From a virus: a stretch of DNA of 35,851 nt. A program made the position numbers and the translations under genes. How positions within the stretch are numbered: the first letter of the stretch is position 1; the number at the start of each line of letters is the position of its first letter. The stretch lies in the UHGV virus genome UHGV-0135983. One strand, written 5' to 3'. The notes beneath the pieces are model-generated. The model worked only from the letters and a program-made list of their open reading frames with translations, was not told where the DNA came from and made no database searches. Below are positions 21,941 through 35,851 of this stretch, piece by piece.

Positions 21941-22201
21941 TTATAGCATATTGCCGTCTGGTTTGATAATGGTATAACCAGTCAATTTAGCTAATTCAAA
22001 CAACGCGTTAAGTGTCGCTACGTGCTCATCGGAATGGACGATTCTCGTCTTCTTAATTTTGCCCTTTTTACATGTTATCAGCACATCACCATCATCGGGG
22101 AGAAGGTCTCCTGCATCTTTCTTATCAATCACTACCTCTCCCTCGCTGATAATACTGTATAAATTCACAGTATATATACTACCAACTGACAGTGAGCGCA
22201 A
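21941..22201 (-). CDS. hypothetical small protein (AT-rich)
   Basis: 86 aa ORF in lower-GC segment. Confidence 0.35.
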   Translation of the reverse strand: MRSLSVGSIYTVNLYSIISEGEVVIDKKDAGDLLPDDGDVLITCKKGKIKKTRIVHSDEHVATLNALFELAKLTGYTIIKPDGNML

Positions 22202-27331: not shown

Positions 27332-28317
27332 AAAGCGCCCTCCCTGGTCTTACGCAATGTCTCTGGTTTCATCAGATAGTCAAAGCTGGCGCGCCATCCG
27401 CCATTTTCACCAAAGTAAAAATCGGAGGCGTCAGCGCGGAATTTTTCGAAATAGCCCAGAAATGCGCCCGTGGTTTTGTTTTTCATATGGGCGGCCAGAC
27501 GGGTGATCATCCGGCGGCGGTCTGTGTCCAGTTCAGCAGCAGGCAGAACGTCAGCAAAAATTTCGTTGTAGCCGTTCATAACGGCTTCCGGATCAATATC
27601 GGTTTCGGTCACCGCCCATGCTTCAGCGTCAGCGAGATAACCATCAAAGCGGTTTACCCGGCAGATGTTCGCTGGCTTCGGCAGGCTATCGCCACGGCGG
27701 CGCCATGTGGCCAGCACCCAGCGGATAACTAACTGCAATTCGTCCAGGGTGTACCCTTCCCGGGTGGTGGTCGGCGTCAGCATCATCACAAACGGTTTCA
27801 GGTCACGGCAGCGGGTACCGGTTTGCTCGTTGTAAAATTCCAGCGCTTTTTTAGCATCAGAATTAATTTTTTCATCGCCTTCCCCCGTCTGGGGGTTAGG
27901 GGGATCTTTAGGTTCTATGACTGGTTCAAAAGAGTGACTGGTTCTGGTGCCGCCACACGGCATAGGGGCTATGCTTTTTGGCGGCATACCTGTGCTTTCT
28001 GACGGCATAGGGGCTATGCTTTTTGGCGGCATAGGGTTATCAAGTTTCATACAGTACAAATTCGACGCGTTACCCTTCCCGTTTTTTACGCCCGGGCGAT
28101 TTTCTTTCACCAGCAGGCCCATGGAAATTAACGCATCGATATGGTCACGCACCGCGCTTTTGCTGCACTCGCAGTGATCCGCAATATGTTTGTAAGACGG
28201 CCAGCATTCGCCGTAATCATTGGCGTTATCAGCCAGTTTGATCAGCACCAGTTTTCGAATCGGGTTTCCGGTCTTGATTGCCATTGCTTTGGCCATAAGC
28301 GTCATACTCATAGTCAA
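27328..28317 (-). CDS. replication initiation protein (HTH N-terminus, lambda O-like role)
   Basis: 329 aa; N-terminal HTH-like region; internal peptide repeat PMPPKSIAPMP x2 coinciding with DNA iterons; conserved phage replication C-terminal region. Confidence 0.7.
   Translation of the reverse strand: MTMSMTLMAKAMAIKTGNPIRKLVLIKLADNANDYGECWPSYKHIADHCECSKSAVRDHIDALISMGLLVKENRPGVKNGKGNASNLYCMKLDNPMPPKSIAPMPSESTGMPPKSIAPMPCGGTRTSHSFEPVIEPKDPPNPQTGEGDEKINSDAKKALEFYNEQTGTRCRDLKPFVMMLTPTTTREGYTLDELQLVIRWVLATWRRRGDSLPKPANICRVNRFDGYLADAEAWAVTETDIDPEAVMNGYNEIFADVLPAAELDTDRRRMITRLAAHMKNKTTGAFLGYFEKFRADASDFYFGENGGWRASFDYLMKPETLRKTREGAL
27958..28037. repeat. iteron-like direct repeats inside the initiator gene (candidate ori)
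   Basis: CGGCATA core at 27958, 27982, 28003, 28027 (21-24 bp spacing); two ~31-bp units CGGCATAGGGGCTATGCTTTTTGGCGGCATA. Confidence 0.6.
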
Positions 28318-28535
28318 ATCCCCAGCGAGTCAGCCAACTGACGGCAGGCGATTTCGTATTCTTTCTGGGTGAGTCCCGCTTCCTGCAGGTCTGCCTTGCG
28401 CAGTTCATAGCGTTCCCAGATTGTCAGCGCAGTAGCGCGACGCTCTTCGAAAATCGATTCGATATCTTCCATCGGGACTTGTACCCCGTTCCGGCGAAAC
28501 CCATTCCGCCAGGTGATGCGGTCTTGTGTTCTCAT
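28314..28535 (-). CDS. hypothetical small protein
   Basis: 73 aa from MRTQDRITWRNGF; ATG directly preceded by CCGAGGAAAGACCA; the longer 162-aa ORF to 28802 would overlap the YdaT-like gene. Confidence 0.5.
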   Translation of the reverse strand: MRTQDRITWRNGFRRNGVQVPMEDIESIFEERRATALTIWERYELRKADLQEAGLTQKEYEIACRQLADSLGI

Positions 28536-28555
28536 TGGTCTTTCCTCGGTACAGG

Positions 28556-29002
28556 TTAAACGCTGGTCAGGCGCTGTGTTTCTCGCATAGCTTGCAATGC
28601 TCTGGCGACTTGCTGCGGCCCGTCTCTGGCGTCGAGTAACAACGCGATAATCGCCGCTGCAAACTCGCGAATGGCCACACAAATTAAATACTGGGTGGAC
28701 ATACCCAAGCGCGCGTAACGTTCTGCCGGCAGCGCCGCTTCCATCGCTTTGACCAGCGCCAGAGTTTTGGCTCTCGCGGCTTTGGTCTCGCCTCGCAACC
28801 AACGAAAAATTTGTTGGCGGTTATTGTTGATTGCCCGCCAGTCGGCGTTTCCATCTGCATCTTCGATCTGGTGCAGCTTCAGCGAACCGGTATTACCACC
28901 AAGACGAAACCACATGCGGCTTATCTCGATAGCAACCAGCTCCTGCCCGCTTTCCGCTGCCCAGTTAAAGATCTCTCGTTTAAGTTCTTCGAGGTATTCC
29001 AC
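28556..29002 (-). CDS. YdaT-like protein (CII-position regulator of Rac-type switch)
   Basis: 148 aa; QQIFRWLRGETKAARAK and overall pattern resemble Rac YdaT as recalled; follows the Cro-like gene. Confidence 0.6.
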   Translation of the reverse strand: MEYLEELKREIFNWAAESGQELVAIEISRMWFRLGGNTGSLKLHQIEDADGNADWRAINNNRQQIFRWLRGETKAARAKTLALVKAMEAALPAERYARLGMSTQYLICVAIREFAAAIIALLLDARDGPQQVARALQAMRETQRLTSV

Positions 29003-29064
29003 TTCGAGCGTCTCCTGTCGCTGAAAATTGATTAAGCGTAATCAGATTTCGATAACGCCTGTAG

Positions 29065-29262
29065 TTATGCTTTAGACGTGTTTTGCTCTTCGTAAAAAGT
29101 AGGGTCGTATTTCAAGGCGCCTGCAGTTACATGCTCAAGTCGCGCAGCTCGCTTTTCAGGAACAACAGCACCCCAGCGGGTTACAGCGACTTGAGAGATA
29201 CCTAATGCACGCGCAACAGCGGTTTTAGTTCCAAAAAATCTGATAACAGTTTCGGTCTTCAT
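29065..29262 (-). CDS. Cro/YdaS-like HTH regulator
   Basis: 65 aa; HTH AVARALGISQVAVTRW; AGGAG RBS; divergent from repressor gene. Confidence 0.7.
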   Translation of the reverse strand: MKTETVIRFFGTKTAVARALGISQVAVTRWGAVVPEKRAARLEHVTAGALKYDPTFYEEQNTSKA

Positions 29263-29330
29263 AGTTTCCTCTCCTAACGTCAGTTAGGAACATAAATACT
29301 AACGAAAGTTATGTCAAGTTAACTTATATT
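29263..29330. promoter_or_regulatory. immunity switch region: operator palindromes and divergent promoters
   Basis: Palindromes TAACGTCAGTTA (29276..29287), TAACGAAAGTTA (29300..29311), AAGTTAACTT (29316..29325); - strand TTGACA (29312..29317) 17 nt from TATGTT (29289..29294); + strand TATATT (29325..29330) just before the repressor start. Confidence 0.6.
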
Positions 29331-29744
29331 ATGGACATGAAAAAATTGACCTTTAACGATCGCATTACATCGAGACGGAAAGAGCTTGGCTTAACCCAAC
29401 AGCAGCTCGCCGATGCCGTTGGCATATCTGGCGTAAGCGTCTACAAGTGGGAAGCAGGTATTAACACCCCAAAAGGGCAAAATCTGTTTTCTCTCGCTGA
29501 GGCTCTTCGTTGCTCTCCGACATGGTTACTTAACGGAACCGATAGCGATGAACCGTTGAAGGCGGAAGACCTTTTACCTCGGTTAGATGATCGCCAAAAG
29601 CTATTGCTTGATCTTTTTGACTCCCTACCTGAATCAGAAAAAGATAGACACATCAATGAGTTGAAAGATAAAGTTGACGGATTCCAGCGATTGTTTGATG
29701 AGTTACTTTTGGTAAAAAAGAAAAAAAACACTCCAAAAAAATAA
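29331..29744 (+). CDS. CI/RacR-like repressor (HTH_XRE, no S24 peptidase domain)
   Basis: 137 aa; HTH LGLTQQQLADAVGISGVSVYKWEAG; possibly leaderless from the ATG at 29337. Confidence 0.75.
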   Translation: MDMKKLTFNDRITSRRKELGLTQQQLADAVGISGVSVYKWEAGINTPKGQNLFSLAEALRCSPTWLLNGTDSDEPLKAEDLLPRLDDRQKLLLDLFDSLPESEKDRHINELKDKVDGFQRLFDELLLVKKKKNTPKK

Positions 29745-29750
29745 ATTAAA

Positions 29751-29780
29751 GGCAATGTTTTCAATGCATTGCCTTTTTTT
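29751..29780 (+). terminator. intrinsic terminator after repressor gene
   Basis: GGCAATG...CATTGCC hairpin followed by TTTTTTT. Confidence 0.6.
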
Positions 29781-29793
29781 ACACCTCAAATAT

Positions 29794-29844
29794 TAACTTT
29801 TGTTAGTAAAAAATATTGCCAATAAAAATACCTTTGGTTATGCT
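29794..29844 (+). promoter_or_regulatory. operator-like palindrome plus sigma70-like promoter
   Basis: TAACTTTTGTTA (29794..29805) matches the TAAC-N4-GTTA pattern; TTGCCA (29816..29821), 17-nt spacer, TATGCT (29839..29844). Confidence 0.45.
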
Positions 29845-29926
29845 TCATCACATCAACGACGCACTAACCACGCGGCAGTTGTTCAGAAACGTTCCGCCGA
29901 CCCGGCGTTAAGGGGGAGGAGAAGTG

Positions 29927-30145
29927 ATGGAAAACGCTGTATTAGGTGCCGTCGGACCAACGCTGAATGTGTTGCTGGATGCACTGAAAGAAGAGAAAGG
30001 AGCCGCCAACGTCGAGGACGTCAAAGCGGTCATCCAGGTTATCAGTGAAGTTGTAGGCAAGTGCGATGGTGATCTGGCTACTGGTTACGCGGTTTGGGAT
30101 GAACTGCTGAATGCGGTGTTACGACATATTTCGACAAAGGGTTAA
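29927..30145 (+). CDS. hypothetical small acidic protein
   Basis: 72 aa; GGGGGAGGA RBS 6 nt upstream of ATG. Confidence 0.5.
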   Translation: MENAVLGAVGPTLNVLLDALKEEKGAANVEDVKAVIQVISEVVGKCDGDLATGYAVWDELLNAVLRHISTKG

Positions 30146-30320
30146 GGCTAATACCCTCTGGTGGGTATAACTCTCGATTGATTCTCACGACTGCTGACAT
30201 GAAATCTACACGGTTATCAATCGGCATCGTAGACAAAATTACTGTCAATAATACCTGGTGTGCTTTCAGCTCTTCTCTGACTGCAGCTAGCTCAGATTTA
30301 AGTTGTTCAAGTTCCGACAT
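30078..30320 (-). CDS. hypothetical small protein (antisense/convergent to 29927..30145)
   Basis: 81 aa from MSELEQLKSELAAVREEL, AAGGGA RBS; 3' end overlaps the + strand gene by 68 nt; uncertain which is expressed. Confidence 0.35.
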   Translation of the reverse strand: MSELEQLKSELAAVREELKAHQVLLTVILSTMPIDNRVDFMSAVVRINRELYPPEGISLNPLSKYVVTPHSAVHPKPRNQ

Positions 30321-30426
30321 TTGTAATCCCTTTTGCTGTTGTTGGAATGGCAAAGGTAGCACGACCGGGCGTGTTGAAAAATCCCGGAACTGAATTCTTC
30401 GGGTCGCCGACAGTACGATGACATGC

Positions 30427-30769
30427 GGGAAAGACCGCAACGAACATCCATTGCTGTGTGTAGTCTTGGCCGGGCGCCCCGGGCATTTTTTTAACACAGT
30501 AACGATTTATGCGACCCTTCAGTGAAAACTGAAGCCCTCGAAAAGAGGGACCCCGTGAGGAAAGACCAGTGAGCCTGACCAGCTCTGGCGCCGGGAAAGA
30601 CCGGGAGGAAAGACCAATGACCTACGGGCATGACCAGCCCTGACAGCCGGGAAAGACCGGCAACCTTTAGATGGCAAAAGGCCCGCACAAGGCGGGCCAG
30701 TTACCCCGAACGGTGACCAAACCATTCGGACTTATCACAAGCGACCAAGCTTGTGATGAGGAAAGACCA
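30427..30769 (+). repeat. cluster of six GGAAAGACC motifs in apparently non-coding DNA
   Basis: GAGGAAAGACCA at 30557, 30605, 30758 (each followed by GTG/ATG and a short in-frame ORF); GGGAAAGACC at 30427, 30593, 30649; 22-bp inverted repeat TCACAAGC-N6-GCTTGTGA at 30735..30756. Confidence 0.6.
30463..30490 (+). terminator. putative intrinsic terminator
   Basis: GC-rich hairpin CCGGGCGCCCCGGG followed by T7 run. Confidence 0.5.
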
Positions 30770-30824
30770 ATGCCGACAGAGTCAACACTGATCGGCTCTG
30801 AGTATACATCAACAAGGAGTCGCT

Positions 30825-31148
30825 ATGGAAGCGCTTACCATCCCCGTGAAGCTGTACATTCACTACATCACCAACACTTTCTCATCCGATAAATATCACG
30901 TTTCAATCTGTGACATGTCACGGAACCACCCGGACATTTATGTGCTGCTGGAAACGCGTGATATCACCATCGATATAAACCAGCCGGAACCCTTCGACCT
31001 TATAGCCTTGCAGGTTGACCAGCTGCGCAGCCAGAAAGAAAACCTTGCTGCCGACGCTCAACGCCAGATCGCCGCGGTCGATGACAAAATTCAGCAGCTG
31101 CTTTGCATCGATCATTCTCAGATTGAAGAAAGTGATATTCCCTTCTGA
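30825..31148 (+). CDS. hypothetical protein (first gene of recombination operon)
   Basis: 107 aa; AAGGAG RBS 6 nt upstream. Confidence 0.5.
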   Translation: MEALTIPVKLYIHYITNTFSSDKYHVSICDMSRNHPDIYVLLETRDITIDINQPEPFDLIALQVDQLRSQKENLAADAQRQIAAVDDKIQQLLCIDHSQIEESDIPF

Positions 31149-31155
31149 GGCGCTT

Positions 31156-31401
31156 ATGAAGAAAAATCCAGTTATCGAAAAAGTTATGGCTTCCGGCCTG
31201 TCTGTATTCGAGCATGAAAATAATAGCGACTTTGGTTCAGGAACTATGCATATCACTATTATCGGTGGTGTCCGACGCGTCGAATTCTATCCAACGACAG
31301 GCACAGTCTATGCCAATGCCGAGAAGGGAAAGTTTCCTGCATTCCGACAGAAAAAAGCCGGTATCGAAGTTGCAATCCGTCTCGCTAAATCCGGCGCCTG
31401 A
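31156..31401 (+). CDS. hypothetical small protein
   Basis: 81 aa from MKKNPVIEKV; GAGG RBS; longer ORF from 31015 overlaps upstream gene. Confidence 0.45.
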   Translation: MKKNPVIEKVMASGLSVFEHENNSDFGSGTMHITIIGGVRRVEFYPTTGTVYANAEKGKFPAFRQKKAGIEVAIRLAKSGA

Positions 31402-31430
31402 CCTGCGCCAGTAACTAAGAGGAAAGACCA

Positions 31431-33650
31431 ATGACCATCTACAACGGCTTATTTGAGCCAAAGAAATCGGCGATTAAAGACTGCGGCGCCGTGCAGCTGG
31501 CGATCGCCATCGATGCGCCAAACAAAAAAGTGGCCGAAAGCATTATGACCGGCAAACTCTGGGAATCATACCCGGCCAATGGTGACAACTATTTCAAACC
31601 GAAACTGTGGGAACACGTTGAAGGCCAGCCGCTGCCGACCGTTGGCCAGTTCGATGAGTCATTCGCCCAGCAGCATACTTTTGACGGTGAAAAATGGGTT
31701 TCTACTGCGCAGGATAGCGCTTCCGGAAGCAGTGCAGGTTTACCTGCCGACGATGAAGTGATCGACCTGATGACCGTTTCCGCAGAGGAACGCTTTGCTG
31801 CCGTCCTGCTTTTTAGCACCGCTGCGATTGATGGCCATCTTTATTCTCAGGTTGTGGATTATCTGGATAACCTGAAAAACCACGATGGCGAATTTGAAGA
31901 GGAAGATCGCTTTAACTTTAATGTGCTGTGCGCCCTACAAAATAACTTCCCGGTTCAAAGCATGCATGTGGAAGGTCTGAATAACCTTGTTCAGGGGATT
32001 TTCTCCCACTTTGAAAACCAGACGCCAGGCAAAGCGGCTATCTCTCAGTTCGTTAAACGCTGGCTTGAGAATCCGGGCAAGCGCGACGAACTGGCCCCCG
32101 GCGTATATAAAAATACCGCTCTCAGCACCAGCACCAGCACCAGCACCGATGATAAAACACCCGTGGTAATTTCTAAGCGGGGTTATAAACACACATATGC
32201 AACGCTGGATCAGGAGATCGCTACCGCCCTTCTCCCGCTGGCGCCTGATGCGCCGGTACTATCCGGAAACCTTCTGGACGCTAAGAAGATGATTGCCGAT
32301 GACCGGGAAGATTTTAAACGCTGGTCTGCATCGCTGCACACCACTCCGCAGATACTCAAATATGACCGCGCCAGCATCTTCGGTGTAGTGCAGAACGTAC
32401 CGGCGAAAGATACCTACCATTTCCCTGACAGCCTGCGCCGCCATATCGATTCATGGCTGGAGGCCAACGGCCGCTTTGAAGAAACCGATACAGGATCCGT
32501 TAAACAGACAGAGGCAACGCAAAATATCGCCTCAAACGTGGGCGAAAAAGCGGAAGTGCCGCAGACGGTTGTAACCGATAACCAAGCGAAACAGGCGCGT
32601 GAGGCGCTCAACGATATGGGCTATGGCGTATATGCATCTGGTGAAGGTGCGGAACCGGAAGATAAGTTAAGCGTTAAGGCTGAGAAAATAGCAGATGAAG
32701 CTGCTCGTTTGTCTCGTGATATTAACCTCAAAGATCGCATGCCAGATGCCGGAGATTTGATTCCAGCAATTCAACCAAATGAAAATATAGCCTCAAAAAA
32801 AATTGAATCATATCTATCTGAATTGAATGACGACCAGGCCAAAGCAAACCTTAGCGTCTGGAATCGCGTCCAGCGCACAGATCCGGCCTTCGTCGAAAAG
32901 AACAGTTTCGGCGCAGGGCTTCACTCAATCCGGGCGCAGTACATGCTGATGCGCGCAACGGAAGTTCTCGGAATGGAAGGAACCGGTTGGGGCGTTGATA
33001 TCAAAGAAGAGCGCATAGATCGAGGTGTGCCGCTTATGGAGCCAATACAGGACCAATCAGGAAAAATAATTGGCCAGAAACCGGTAAGGGACGGGGATGG
33101 CTCATTATTCTGTTTATCCGTACATACAATTCGGATTGAACTCTGGTACCTGCGAGACGGAAAGAAGGGGCGCATTCCGGCCTATGGACATACGGATTAC
33201 ATCACCAAGGGTGGTGATGGTGCATTAAAAATGGAGAAAGAAGCCGCCAAAAAATCACTGACTGACGCTACAACCAAAGCACTATCCCATCTCGGATTTG
33301 GTGCAGACGTGTACATGAACATGCATAACGACAACGAATACACTTCAAAATTGAATGAGATATTCGAAATCAAAAAAGCCAGCGAAAGCATAGAAGATAT
33401 AGTGCGACTTCGTCAGGAATTAGACGACGATCTTACCTCCGTTGCTGAAACCCTATCTACTGGCGTGACTGTTAACGAAGTTGAAAAGGTTTTTGGCACG
33501 ATAGCCCGAAAACTCGAAGTTCACCGCAAGGATGCAGAATCAAAAGGCGATACACAGCGCTCTCGGTACCTCAGTGGCCGGTTGCGCCGCCTGACTGAAA
33601 TCAAAAATGGACGTCTCGCCGAACTAAATAAATCCGAGGAGAAAGCATAA
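31431..33650 (+). CDS. Erf-family single-strand annealing protein with ~480-aa N-terminal extension
   Basis: 739 aa; C-terminal region has Erf-like blocks NSFGAGLHSIRAQYM and KALSHLGFGADVY (cf. P22 Erf NSFGKYKYR / LNGLFGIDD); start preceded by GAGGAAAGACCA; (AGCACC)x4 encodes an STSTSTST linker. Confidence 0.6.
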   Translation: MTIYNGLFEPKKSAIKDCGAVQLAIAIDAPNKKVAESIMTGKLWESYPANGDNYFKPKLWEHVEGQPLPTVGQFDESFAQQHTFDGEKWVSTAQDSASGSSAGLPADDEVIDLMTVSAEERFAAVLLFSTAAIDGHLYSQVVDYLDNLKNHDGEFEEEDRFNFNVLCALQNNFPVQSMHVEGLNNLVQGIFSHFENQTPGKAAISQFVKRWLENPGKRDELAPGVYKNTALSTSTSTSTDDKTPVVISKRGYKHTYATLDQEIATALLPLAPDAPVLSGNLLDAKKMIADDREDFKRWSASLHTTPQILKYDRASIFGVVQNVPAKDTYHFPDSLRRHIDSWLEANGRFEETDTGSVKQTEATQNIASNVGEKAEVPQTVVTDNQAKQAREALNDMGYGVYASGEGAEPEDKLSVKAEKIADEAARLSRDINLKDRMPDAGDLIPAIQPNENIASKKIESYLSELNDDQAKANLSVWNRVQRTDPAFVEKNSFGAGLHSIRAQYMLMRATEVLGMEGTGWGVDIKEERIDRGVPLMEPIQDQSGKIIGQKPVRDGDGSLFCLSVHTIRIELWYLRDGKKGRIPAYGHTDYITKGGDGALKMEKEAAKKSLTDATTKALSHLGFGADVYMNMHNDNEYTSKLNEIFEIKKASESIEDIVRLRQELDDDLTSVAETLSTGVTVNEVEKVFGTIARKLEVHRKDAESKGDTQRSRYLSGRLRRLTEIKNGRLAELNKSEEKA

Positions 33651-34831: not shown

Positions 34832-35851
34832 ATGGGAAGGAGAAGAAAAGATCCAACAGATAATAAATTGCCACCTCGTGTTTCAAAAACCAAAACTCGG
34901 TATTACTACAAACCCACAGCACGAGAAACTATAACGCTAGGGCCAATAACTCTTTCAATGTCTGCATTGTGGAAACGTTATGAGGAAGAAAGACGAAATC
35001 ACTCAGGAGTAATGACGTTTGAAAAGCTCTGGGGAATGTTTTTAAAGAGCGCCTATTACACCGAACTCGCAATTCGTACCCAAAAAGATTATTTGCAACA
35101 TCAAAAAAAATTATTAGTCGTTTTTGGAAAAATGAAAGCTGATCTTATCAAGCCCGAAGAAGTTCGCCAGTTTATGGATCGACGTGGCCTAAAAAGCAAA
35201 AATCAGGCTAATCAGGAAATGAGTAGTATGTCGAGGGTGTTTCGATGGGGTTTTGAACGTGGTTATGTAAAAGGCAACCCATGTGCCGGGGTTAGTAAGT
35301 TTTCGTTAAAGGCACGTGAACAATATATTACCGATGAAGATTATCTGGTTATCTATAAAAATGCTGATTCAGTTGTGCGGGCTGCAATGGAAATATCATA
35401 CCTGTGTGCTGCCCGCCAGGCTGACGTGTTGGGATTGTGCTGGATGCAGATAACAGACAAAGGGATATTCATTCAACAGGGTAAGACGGGGAAAAAGCAG
35501 ATCAAGGTCTGGACCCCTCGCCTTCATCAAGCCTTCGTTACGGCACAAATAGATTGCCCCAAACTGTCTGCTAACGGACTAGTGATCTACAACAACGATA
35601 AAGGCCAGTTTATCCGTAAGACGTTCAATAATCGCTGGCTTAAAGCCGTACGCGCAGCACAAAACGAATTGGGGCGACAACTGGACTATACATTTCACGA
35701 TATCAAAGCGAAGGGGATTTCAGATTTCGAGGGTAGCAGTAAGGACAAGCAGATGTTCAGTGGCCACAAGACGGAAAGTCAGGTTCTGGTGTATGACAGA
35801 AAGGTACAAATAAGCCCTACTTTGAATCTACCCGTAATTGGCGGTGATTGA
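34832..35851 (+). CDS. int: tyrosine integrase (lambda Int family)
   Basis: 339 aa; N-terminal arm-binding-like region, C-terminal catalytic region with conserved R...H-x-x-R...Y arrangement; stop is the final codon of the window. Confidence 0.9.
   Translation: MGRRRKDPTDNKLPPRVSKTKTRYYYKPTARETITLGPITLSMSALWKRYEEERRNHSGVMTFEKLWGMFLKSAYYTELAIRTQKDYLQHQKKLLVVFGKMKADLIKPEEVRQFMDRRGLKSKNQANQEMSSMSRVFRWGFERGYVKGNPCAGVSKFSLKAREQYITDEDYLVIYKNADSVVRAAMEISYLCAARQADVLGLCWMQITDKGIFIQQGKTGKKQIKVWTPRLHQAFVTAQIDCPKLSANGLVIYNNDKGQFIRKTFNNRWLKAVRAAQNELGRQLDYTFHDIKAKGISDFEGSSKDKQMFSGHKTESQVLVYDRKVQISPTLNLPVIGGD

Follow-up and report, generated by a model that had tools for sequence, protein, structure and literature searches.

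Five copies of one operator at both early promoters point to a DicA/DicC-type immunity switch in a lambdoid temperate phage

We analyzed a 35,851-nt viral genome (UHGV-0135983; hereafter the window, meaning this entire stretch of DNA) and found a region that is very probably the DicA/DicC-type immunity switch of a lambdoid temperate phage, with five copies of one operator and repression of both early promoters. We identify the predicted promoter at 29816, beyond the repressor gene, as PL of this phage and as the counterpart of dicBp in the Qin (Kim) cryptic prophage of E. coli K-12. The operator site upstream of it is the distal half of a putative two-part OL serving repression, because the promoter scaffold is fixed among related phages while the distal and proximal sites both co-vary with their own OR. 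The elements of the region are the following.

29065-29262, minus strand: cro-like gene of 65 aa, matching Pfam P22_Cro at 76.3 bits against a cut-off of 30.2 (DicC / P22-Cro family)
29263-29330: repressor/cro intergenic space of 68 bp, holding three sites
29275-29286: OR site nearest cro, equivalent to Qin Oc; TAACGTCAGTTA, exact match, weight-matrix rank 3
29289-29317, minus strand: PR-like cro promoter; TTGACA (29317-29312), 17 bp, TATGTT (29294-29289)
29300-29311: middle OR site, Om equivalent, in the cro promoter spacer; TAACGAAAGTTA, exact match, rank 2
29320-29331: OR site nearest the repressor gene, Oa equivalent; TAACTTATATTA, one mismatch, rank 5 though outside the training set
29325-29330, plus strand: putative repressor -10, TATATT, 6 nt before the ATG at 29337
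29331-29744, plus strand: DicA-type repressor gene, 137 aa from 29331, probably 135 aa from 29337
29748-29780, plus strand: intrinsic terminator of the repressor gene; 11-bp stem, 7-nt loop, T-run
29794-29805: distal OL site, the "third site" of the preliminary description; TAACTTTTGTTA, exact match, rank 1
29816-29844, plus strand: PL-like early-left promoter, dicBp counterpart; TTGCCA, 17 bp, TATGCT
29829-29840: proximal OL site; TACCTTTGGTTA, one mismatch, center at about -16.5, rank 4 though outside the training set
29851-29889, plus strand: predicted PL transcript start and leader; CATCAACGACGCACTAACCACGCGGCAGTTGTTCAGAAA, conserved across phages of differing immunity types

Exact copies of the operator, TAAC-N4-GTTA, occur three times in the 35.8 kb of the window (beginning at 29275, 29300 and 29794) against 0.31 expected, all of them within regulatory DNA, and none of 100 shuffles reached three. 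Two further copies with one mismatch each had gone unnoticed in the preliminary description (29320-29331 and 29829-29840), and all five sites share 4-bp centers. A weight matrix trained on relatives only, with the window and the proximal and ATG-adjacent sites left out, placed precisely these five at ranks 1-5 of ~35,800 window positions, with scores of 20.3, 20.2, 16.9, 13.7 and 13.3, followed by 10.7 and then 7.9. The one-mismatch match at 29574, inside the repressor gene, ranked 59th and was set aside as chance, as was a promoter-like match at 29645-29674. Neither the window sequence nor the matrix ranking revealed a third OL site between, upstream or downstream of the two OL sites, and a literature search for the GGAAAGACCAA motif returned unrelated primer sequences only.

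The comparison covered 115 related loci spanning 12 repressor DNA-binding-domain groups. The promoter scaffold is fixed across groups, in each of which TTGACx-17-TAAnnT stands at a set distance from the conserved leader. In a fixed-position test on 12 representatives (11 helix-turn-helix groups plus Qin), in which the proximal and distal PL positions were compared with own and foreign ORs, the own OR matched at 12.3 of 16 bases against 10.3 for foreign ORs at the proximal position, and at 13.5 against 11.2 at the distal position; none of 20,000 permutations reached the observed values. This test replaced an earlier cross-match by ungapped local alignment of whole regions, which was noisy (own 12.2, foreign 8.5, with overlapping values). 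Loci whose repressors are of the window or L132 type had exact sites in OR (~1.9 per OR) and PL (~0.9-1.0 per PL), with 0 outside these two in 266 kb, against 1 exact TAAC-N4-GTTA in 887 kb from the loci of the other 10 groups. Repressor and Cro types are paired across loci, and because both proteins thus co-vary, the co-variation cannot tell repressor binding from Cro binding. The operator family proposed in the preliminary description is borne out: its sites are found at OR and the downstream promoter only, and they vary together with repressor and Cro type.

Among named phages searched by tblastn, none encodes a repressor more than 60% identical to that of the window; the best, at 59.5%, is the UV-inducible Cronobacter phage phiES15, which shares the operator family, with its five sites laid out as here. 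A Megablast comparison with named phages returned for this region two "Stenotrophomonas" phage records only, both of another immunity type, and a single-protein scan of genome contigs returned mostly unrelated Firmicutes helix-turn-helix proteins. The mEpimmI "Nus-dependent" phages form a separate group with S24-type repressors.

Within OR, the Oc-equivalent site extends to a perfect dyad, CCTAAC-GTCA-GTTAGG (29273-29288), and begins directly after the cro promoter -10, covering the cro transcription start predicted at about 29282 on the minus strand; in alignment its position matches that of Qin Oc, and the position of the site nearest the repressor gene matches Qin Oa. The Om-equivalent site is nearly invariant across 10 unique OR sequences of relatives. 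A promoter scan scored the cro promoter at 10 of 12 consensus positions, and the promoter is kept in relatives. The 68-bp space, its exact palindromes, a GTTAAC and both promoters, all part of the preliminary description, were recovered where it had placed them, and the scan likewise upheld its near-consensus cro promoter overlapping two operator sites. The GTTAAC is indeed present at 29318-29323, but it is better read as supplying the left half of the third OR site, which takes in its right four bases, TAAC (29320-29323), and overlaps the putative repressor -10. The Cro protein is 42% identical to Qin DicC, with a score of 63.5 that lies below the DicC equivalog cut-off of 130.

Against the NCBIfam DicA model (NF007257), whose cut-off is 101 bits, the repressor scores 152.8 over model positions 1-133 of 135, and its full-length identity to K-12 DicA is 44% (E = 1e-39). 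Residues 8-71 match the N-terminal domain of P22 C2 (1ADR, 2R1J, 3JXB; E = 5e-13). Pfam detected only helix-turn-helix families in the protein (HTH_3), with no match to Peptidase_S24, and the C-terminal 54 aa gave no significant family match. Its layout is that of a P22-C2-like helix-turn-helix N-terminal domain joined to a short helical C-terminal domain, the latter conserved in all immunity groups. The repressor mRNA is plausibly leaderless, probably with the ATG at 29337 as its first codon: in 8 of 14 representatives, drawn from window-type and other groups, an in-frame ATG that lacks a Shine-Dalgarno sequence is preceded at 6-7 nt by a TAnnnT hexamer, and phiES15 shows the same arrangement. 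The weak leaderless-type repressor promoter proposed earlier agrees with this positional rule. The terminator that follows the gene has a fold energy of -14.5 kcal/mol (z = -4.65), and its counterpart in one related locus, L002, carries a compensatory change (GGTAATG...CATTACC).

Beyond the terminator, the PL core agrees with consensus at 9 of 12 positions in the promoter scan, with a -35 hexamer matching at 5 of 6 and a TAnnnT -10. The distal OL site, which relatives and phiES15 also have, lies entirely before the -35, centered at about -51.5 from the predicted PL start. The proximal site sits in the spacer and overlaps the first two -10 bases, at a position where other immunity groups have the operator specific to each (for example GTTAGTCATGACTAAT); within the clade it is always off consensus, with TACC or TATC for TAAC, and the conserved -10 confounds any estimate of how far the site itself is conserved. 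The two centers are 35 bp apart, ~3.3 helical turns, a spacing awkward for simple side-by-side cooperativity. An exact 18-mer of the leader retrieved 113 viral-contig stretches with 12 different repressor types. The leader's first 73 nt folded no better than shuffled sequences (z = +0.5), an Rfam search of 28800-31500 at E <= 1 gave sub-threshold hits only (RprA-like, STnc240, Trp leader), none credible, and a search for an N-like ORF found none. As a separate observation, a boxB-like array of hairpins with GAAAGA loops is present in the PL leader only. The operon downstream holds genes for an exonuclease-like and a Gam-like protein, followed by another large ORF (34832-35851), and resembles an early-left operon; a small extra ORF follows PL in this phage (73 aa) and in the E24377A prophage.

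The closest experimentally studied counterpart is the dicA-dicC-dicBp region of Qin, in which dicBp is the PL analogue. DicA represses dicBp, whose expression is 22-fold higher upon dicA deletion, and an antirepressor relieves this repression (PMC10448788). DicA was shown genetically to bind Oc; it represses dicC and stimulates its own gene, and an in vivo assay of the Qin sites detected DicA binding to Oc but to neither Om nor Oa on its own (PMC3441716). Where DicA binds at dicBp has yet to be mapped by experiment in E. coli K-12 (PMC7567609). Besides the full-length homology of the repressors and the homology of Cro to DicC, the window shares with Qin the three OR positions and a promoter located past the terminator and oriented like the repressor gene. 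dicBp aligns with this promoter column for column, including the distal site, the TTGACx -35 and the proximal site in the spacer, and the 35 bp between site centers is the same in both; both leaders begin with CATCAAC, and their first ORFs share a ydfA-type ribosome-binding region. The two regions differ in operator sequence (TAAC-N4-GTTA in the window, GTTAGTCA/TAACTAAC in Qin) and in the length of the intergenic space (68 bp versus 83 bp). Qin's dicF, dicB and ydfABC cargo is also missing from the window, whose operon instead carries the recombination genes of an apparently intact phage. DicF was not among the Rfam hits in 28800-31500, and a tblastn search of the window for Rem, the Qin antirepressor, returned nothing better than E = 1.5; where Qin has Rem, the window has a gene behind a LexA box. 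Rem and the dicF/dicB cargo are features of Qin and not of the DicA repressor family.

The switch would probably operate as follows. In a lysogen, repressor dimers would occupy the operators and block RNA polymerase at PR, which is expected to drive cro, ydaT and the replication genes, and at PL, which is expected to drive the leader together with genes for recombination and integration. At PL, the strong distal site most likely loads the weak proximal site through cooperative binding; it also overlaps an A-rich segment directly before the -35. Silencing of the strong, back-to-back PR probably frees the weak and probably leaderless repressor promoter, which would account for the reported "auto-activation" by DicA. 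Cro presumably acts on the same operator sites. Since the repressor has no autocleavage domain, another factor must bring about induction, and the likely candidate is the product of a small gene, a 63-aa ORF at 21941-22132, behind a perfect LexA box (22155-22170).

Other readings of the palindromes and of the distal site were weighed against this repression model. That the palindromes arose by chance in AT-rich DNA, or belong to the promoters and bind no protein, would fit the AT-richness of the region and the lack of enrichment of one-mismatch matches across the window (12 versus 9.3 expected). Yet the excess of exact matches in regulatory DNA, the co-variation with OR in the permutation test, the strict association with repressor type over ~1.15 Mb of related loci and the top weight-matrix ranks effectively refute this reading, to which we give almost no credence. 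The preliminary description had regarded the distal site as better placed for activation, and we reject this as very improbable. A repressor bound at 29794-29805 would then activate the 29816 promoter and the 73-aa ORF would be expressed in the lysogen, in keeping with a site entirely upstream of the -35, an imperfect proximal site, and the small extra ORF that this phage and the E24377A prophage have after the promoter. However, activators usually act from about -41.5 or -61.5 (class I and class II spacing), and the center at about -51.5 falls between these positions. The core is already good, with its 5/6 -35 hexamer, 17-bp spacer and TAnnnT -10; it contains a second operator at the place where every immunity group has its group-specific operator; and the two-site layout also occurs in relatives without the 73-aa ORF. 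Positive effects are possible in this family, as DicA is said to stimulate its own gene from Oc (PMC3441716), but the homologous dicBp goes up 22-fold without DicA (PMC10448788).

A long-range function for the distal site is also conceivable, though we consider it unlikely to be the main one: a repressor loop of ~0.5 kb between OL and OR, around the repressor gene, would tune autoregulation in the manner of lambda OL3-OR3. OR and OL are ~520 bp apart with only the repressor gene between them (~510 bp in Qin), the local 35-bp spacing is out of helical phase, and the C-terminal domain common to all immunity groups could mediate oligomerization. Such looping is, however, compatible with local repression as well, and we retain repression from a two-part OL as the most probable function of the distal site.

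Comparison with better-known switches places this one among the lambdoid phages. It resembles P22 immC in that the N-terminal domain of its repressor is homologous to the C2 DNA-binding domain, its Cro belongs to the P22_Cro family, and dyad operators with a 4-bp center, the central spacer of P22 operators, lie at both early promoters; it differs in half-site sequence, in having two OL sites rather than three, and in lacking the S24 autocleavage domain of C2. With lambda CI/Cro it shares divergent genes, a three-site OR overlapping both promoters, a PL downstream of the repressor gene in the same direction and bearing repeated operators, a probably leaderless repressor mRNA, and a probable coupling of PR shut-off to repressor expression. 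Unlike lambda, it has an unrelated repressor C-terminal domain, for which RecA-mediated cleavage is not expected, an OL of two sites 35 bp apart in place of OL1-3, no N-like ORF, and a YdaT-family protein in place of CII. Such a protein also follows cro in Rac (RacR/YdaS/YdaT) and CP-933P (PaaR2/YdaS/YdaT), and the window has a YdaT-box-like dyad, TTGATTAAGCGTAATCAG, at the cro-ydaT junction (PMC11879457), but its repressor is of the DicA type, not RacR or PaaR2, and its operators are unrelated to theirs. In its short, non-cleavable repressor the phage is reminiscent of Gifsy-type repressors controlled by LexA-regulated antirepressors (PMC3121763), and it carries a small gene behind a canonical LexA box that is conserved in relatives of several immunity groups; the candidate antirepressor is only weakly similar to annotated ones (phrog_4792, E = 6e-4).

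Collectively, our results describe an ordinary switch of a temperate enterobacterial phage, one that would not surprise specialists in lambdoid phages, and they correct its annotation: the promoter after the repressor gene is the predicted PL, and two of five operators had been missed. They also indicate from sequence where the DicA sites of dicBp-type promoters may lie. The 12 repressor groups, with their matched operators on a fixed scaffold, form a natural data set for the recognition rules of helix-turn-helix proteins, and the same set may be useful for constructing orthogonal repressor/operator pairs. More speculatively, and with what we judge to be a low probability, the distal PL site and OR may form a loop of ~0.5 kb around the repressor gene that sets autoregulation, in a repressor family whose C-terminal domain is not of the lambda type, with the C-terminal module serving as the common target of one LexA-controlled antirepressor. 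If so, a single antirepressor would be common to phages of at least 10 operator specificities, and the SOS response could induce prophages of differing immunity types together.

The palindromes around the repressor gene are a real but ordinary finding: they are the operators of a lambdoid immunity switch of the DicA/DicC type. The window (35,851 bp) has three exact copies of TAAC-N4-GTTA (29275-29286, 29300-29311 and 29794-29805) against 0.31 expected by chance, and none of 100 shuffles reached three. One-mismatch matches are not enriched across the window (12 versus 9.3 expected). Among them are TAACTTATATTA at 29320-29331, which adjoins the repressor ATG, and TACCTTTGGTTA at 29829-29840, which lies within the spacer of the promoter at 29816 and overlaps its -10. 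We scored all positions on both strands with a symmetrised weight matrix trained on 15 unique sites of relatives; no site from the window, and none in a proximal or ATG-adjacent position, entered the training set. The three exact sites and these two took ranks 1-5 (20.3, 20.2, 16.9, 13.7 and 13.3; next 10.7 and 7.9), and a one-mismatch match within the repressor gene ranked 59. The operator sites number five, not three; OR denotes those between cro and the repressor gene, OL those at PL, the early-left promoter past the repressor gene.

Operator sites, with centres computed for transcription starts assumed 7 nt downstream of each -10
29275-29286, OR site, centre about +2 from the cro (PR) start, overlapping the cro transcription start
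29300-29311, OR site, centre about -23.5 from the cro (PR) start, in the cro promoter spacer
29320-29331, OR site, centre about -43.5 from the cro (PR) start, overlapping the -10 of the repressor promoter
29794-29805, distal OL, centre about -51.5 from the PL start, with A-rich GTAAAAAATA between site and -35
29829-29840, proximal OL, centre about -16.5 from the PL start, overlapping spacer and -10

The enrichment of exact sites and the ranking by a matrix built from relatives bear out the operator family proposed in the preliminary description, and a promoter scan recovered its cro promoter, PR (TTGACA-17-TATGTT, minus strand, 29317 to 29289). The GTTAAC listed there as a separate palindrome is present, as part of the one-mismatch OR site at 29320-29331.

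The OR sites lie in the 68 bp between divergent ORFs at 29065-29262 (minus) and 29331-29744 (plus). The plus-strand product, the repressor, carries a helix-turn-helix domain alone (HTH_3, E = 4.7e-16), with no S24 peptidase in a Pfam search. It matches the full NCBIfam model "transcriptional repressor DicA" at 152.8 bits (curated cut-off 101), is 44% identical end to end to E. coli K-12 DicA (E = 1e-39), and over residues 8-71 shows homology to the P22 C2 repressor's DNA-binding domain, whose structure is solved (E = 5e-13). The minus-strand product is a P22_Cro family member (76.3 bits versus a 30.2 cut-off) and is 42% identical to DicC. Beyond cro on the minus strand lie a YdaT-family protein, the CII analogue, then an HTH_36-domain protein where a replication initiator would be placed, and a 468-aa ORF that corresponds to genes labelled replicative DNA helicase in relatives. 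On the plus strand, a long leader precedes exonuclease-like and Gam-like genes and a further large ORF (34832-35851). Such an arrangement, with one early operon running rightward and one leftward, is that of a lambdoid immunity region.

Two features near ydaT were also observed. At the cro-ydaT junction, TTGATTAAGCGTAATCAG (29028-29045) differs by one mismatch from the published YdaT box, TTGATT-N6-AATCAA, which lies at the same junction in Rac and CP-933P (PMC11879457), and may be a CII-like activator site for an establishment promoter; window matches with at most two mismatches number 3 versus 1.7 expected, counts that alone are not significant. After ydaT, 28314-28538 (minus) encodes a small conserved protein that matches no family and has the motif DRITWRNG, invariant, near its N-terminus, for whose counterpart in phage BUCT708 the label "adenylate cyclase" seems a misannotation.

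On the plus strand, the promoter scan found TTGCCA-17-TATGCT at 29816-29844, directly beyond the repressor gene's terminator (11-bp stem, -14.5 kcal/mol, z = -4.65, then a T-run) and in the same orientation as that gene, the position that lambda PL and dicBp of Qin, the cryptic prophage of E. coli K-12, hold relative to their repressor genes. Alignment of the window with Qin is colinear, element for element, with 35 bp between distal and proximal site centres in both.

Window elements and their Qin counterparts
Distal OL site: TGTTAGCTATAGCATACA
TTGCCA: TTGACC
Proximal OL site: TGTTAGTCATGGCTAAT
Leader start: CATCAAC in both
First-ORF ribosome-binding region: GTTCCGC...GCGTTAAGGGG common to both

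In K-12, dicBp is the PL analogue, and rises 22-fold upon dicA deletion and 165-fold upon expression of the Rem antirepressor (PMC10448788). DicA binds Oc (TTGTTAGTCATAACTAACAA), the Qin OR site nearest dicC, repressing dicC and stimulating dicA, and leaves Om or Oa, the sites successively closer to dicA, unbound when either is alone (PMC3441716); a Reg-Seq study gives the DicA site at dicB as unknown (PMC7567609).

The position of the distal site upstream of the -35 had suggested activation rather than repression. A centre at -51.5 is an unusual activating position, given class I and class II spacing. We rejected the activator reading because of this placement, and because the core promoter is good, contains its own operator and has a DicA-repressed counterpart in Qin.

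The PL leader is near-invariant in relatives, and its exact 18-mer GCGGCAGTTGTTCAGAAA retrieved 113 viral-contig stretches. An upstream repressor was callable in 115 loci, some of them contigs fetched twice. All have in common a conserved stretch of about 50 aa at the C-terminus (LP-SEK-RH...FxxLFxELL), and they fall into 12 groups by N-terminal DNA-binding domain, one of which is a different, miscalled gene. DicA-family repressors are thus modular (loci L030-L142): one C-terminal segment is joined to at least ten different N-terminal helix-turn-helix domains, and each type has operators to match, set in a promoter scaffold that is otherwise constant (TTGACx, 17 bp, TAAnnT, constant distance to the leader in every group). 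Two fixed PL positions, one in the spacer and -10 and the other 34-36 bp upstream, vary by group and resemble the group's own OR sites, as in the DicA-like group (GTTAGTCATGACTAAT and GTTAGTCATGACTTAT at PL, TTGTAAGCCATAACTAACAA at OR) and the BUCT708 group (GTTAGATTTACCTAAA at PL, GTTAGATTTTTCTAAC at OR). The 16-mers at both positions in 12 representatives (11 groups plus Qin) were compared with every OR.

Mean identity of PL-position 16-mers to OR sequences
Proximal position: own OR 12.3/16, foreign ORs 10.3, 0 of 20,000 permutations reaching the observed value
Distal position: own OR 13.5/16, foreign ORs 11.2, 0 of 20,000 permutations reaching the observed value

Exact TAAC-N4-GTTA is confined, with one exception, to loci with window-group or related L132/E24377A-group repressors, which carry about 1.9 exact sites per OR and 0.9-1.0 per PL. 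Outside OR and PL of these loci none occurs in 266 kb, and the other ten groups hold one in 887 kb. Across 16 unique PL and 10 unique OR sequences of the two window-type groups, half-sites are kept and flanks vary. In Cronobacter phage phiES15, which is UV-inducible and whose repressor is 59.5% identical to the window's, the five-site layout recurs with an identical core. Cro types pair with repressor types (the Cro helix SQVAVTRW is common to window and L132), so the sites are a property of the entire immunity module, and their sequence by itself does not tell whether they belong to repressor or Cro.

Among the relatives are two records named Stenotrophomonas phage BUCT708 (L003, OM816834.1) and BUCT709 (OM816835.1). 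Both have an enterobacterial-type DicA/DicC immunity and replication region like those of E. coli and Enterobacter prophages, matching about 14% of a 1.6-kb query with nucleotide identity of about 90%. Their stated host looks doubtful.

The PL leader itself (about 29851-30824) is long and structured, with no Rfam match. It contains three plus-strand hairpins with an invariant GAAAGA loop (30424-30439, 30591-30604 and 30646-30661) and, in mid-leader ahead of the recombination genes, a hairpin that resembles a terminator and has a T7 run (30470-30492, plus); the 321 nt at 30380-30700 fold far better than shuffled sequence (z = -4.2). All 108 related leaders carry one to five GAAAGA-loop hairpins, versus 1 of 112 control regions, and the stems co-vary (ccgg/ccgg, cccg/cggg, tctg/caga, ttcg/cgaa, ctcg/cgag). 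These hairpins resemble boxB, yet the PL operon lacks an N-like gene. GACCAA-loop hairpins are a further feature of these leaders. Behind PL, a 73-aa ORF without family match (29924-30145, plus) takes the ydfA position, convergent with an 80-aa ORF (30078-30323, minus; phrog_20080). The pair, which has the look of an accessory cassette brought in by insertion, is present in the window and the E. coli E24377A prophage and absent from other relatives, where the first GAAAGA hairpin stands instead.

A further repeat, GGAAAGACC, occurs 10 times in the window versus 0.29 expected, every copy being oriented with transcription. Several extend to GGAAAGACC(A)ATG and serve genes as their ribosome-binding regions; 28538, 31431 and 25886 are examples.

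Positions of GGAAAGACC
Minus strand: 25888, 28537
Plus strand: 30428, 30559, 30594, 30607, 30650, 30760, 31421, 34598

The repressor has no cleavage domain, and no Rem homologue was found in the window. At 22155-22170 there is a perfect LexA box (CTGTATAAATTCACAG, part of TACTGTATAAATTCACAGTA), and directly downstream is a small ORF of about 63 aa (21941-22132, minus) that matches phrog_340 and has a weak similarity to an antirepressor family (E = 6e-4). Its homologues, found in 28 related loci, come from at least seven immunity groups, and a LexA-type CTG-N10-CAG box precedes 24 of the 28. The ORF is therefore a reasonable candidate antirepressor under SOS control that would act on the C-terminal domain conserved among the repressors, with precedent in Gifsy prophages (PMC3121763).

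The simplest model is promoter occlusion at PR and PL, in which the perfect distal OL site would help occupancy of the weaker proximal one. The repressor gene has a weak promoter (TATATT at 29325-29330, no good -35) that abuts the strong cro promoter in the opposite orientation; shutting off cro transcription would thus free it, which could account for the reported positive autoregulation by DicA without a dedicated activating contact. TAnnnT stands 6-7 nt upstream of an in-frame ATG, without a Shine-Dalgarno sequence, in 8 of 14 representatives, phiES15 included, so the leaderless repressor transcript suggested earlier is plausible. Translation probably begins at the second ATG, 29337 (MKKLTF...), not 29331, since the conserved TATATT lies exactly 6 nt upstream without a Shine-Dalgarno sequence and phiES15 has an identical -10 followed by a single ATG. 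What is new in this immunity switch is the operator sequence and the two-part organization of OL.
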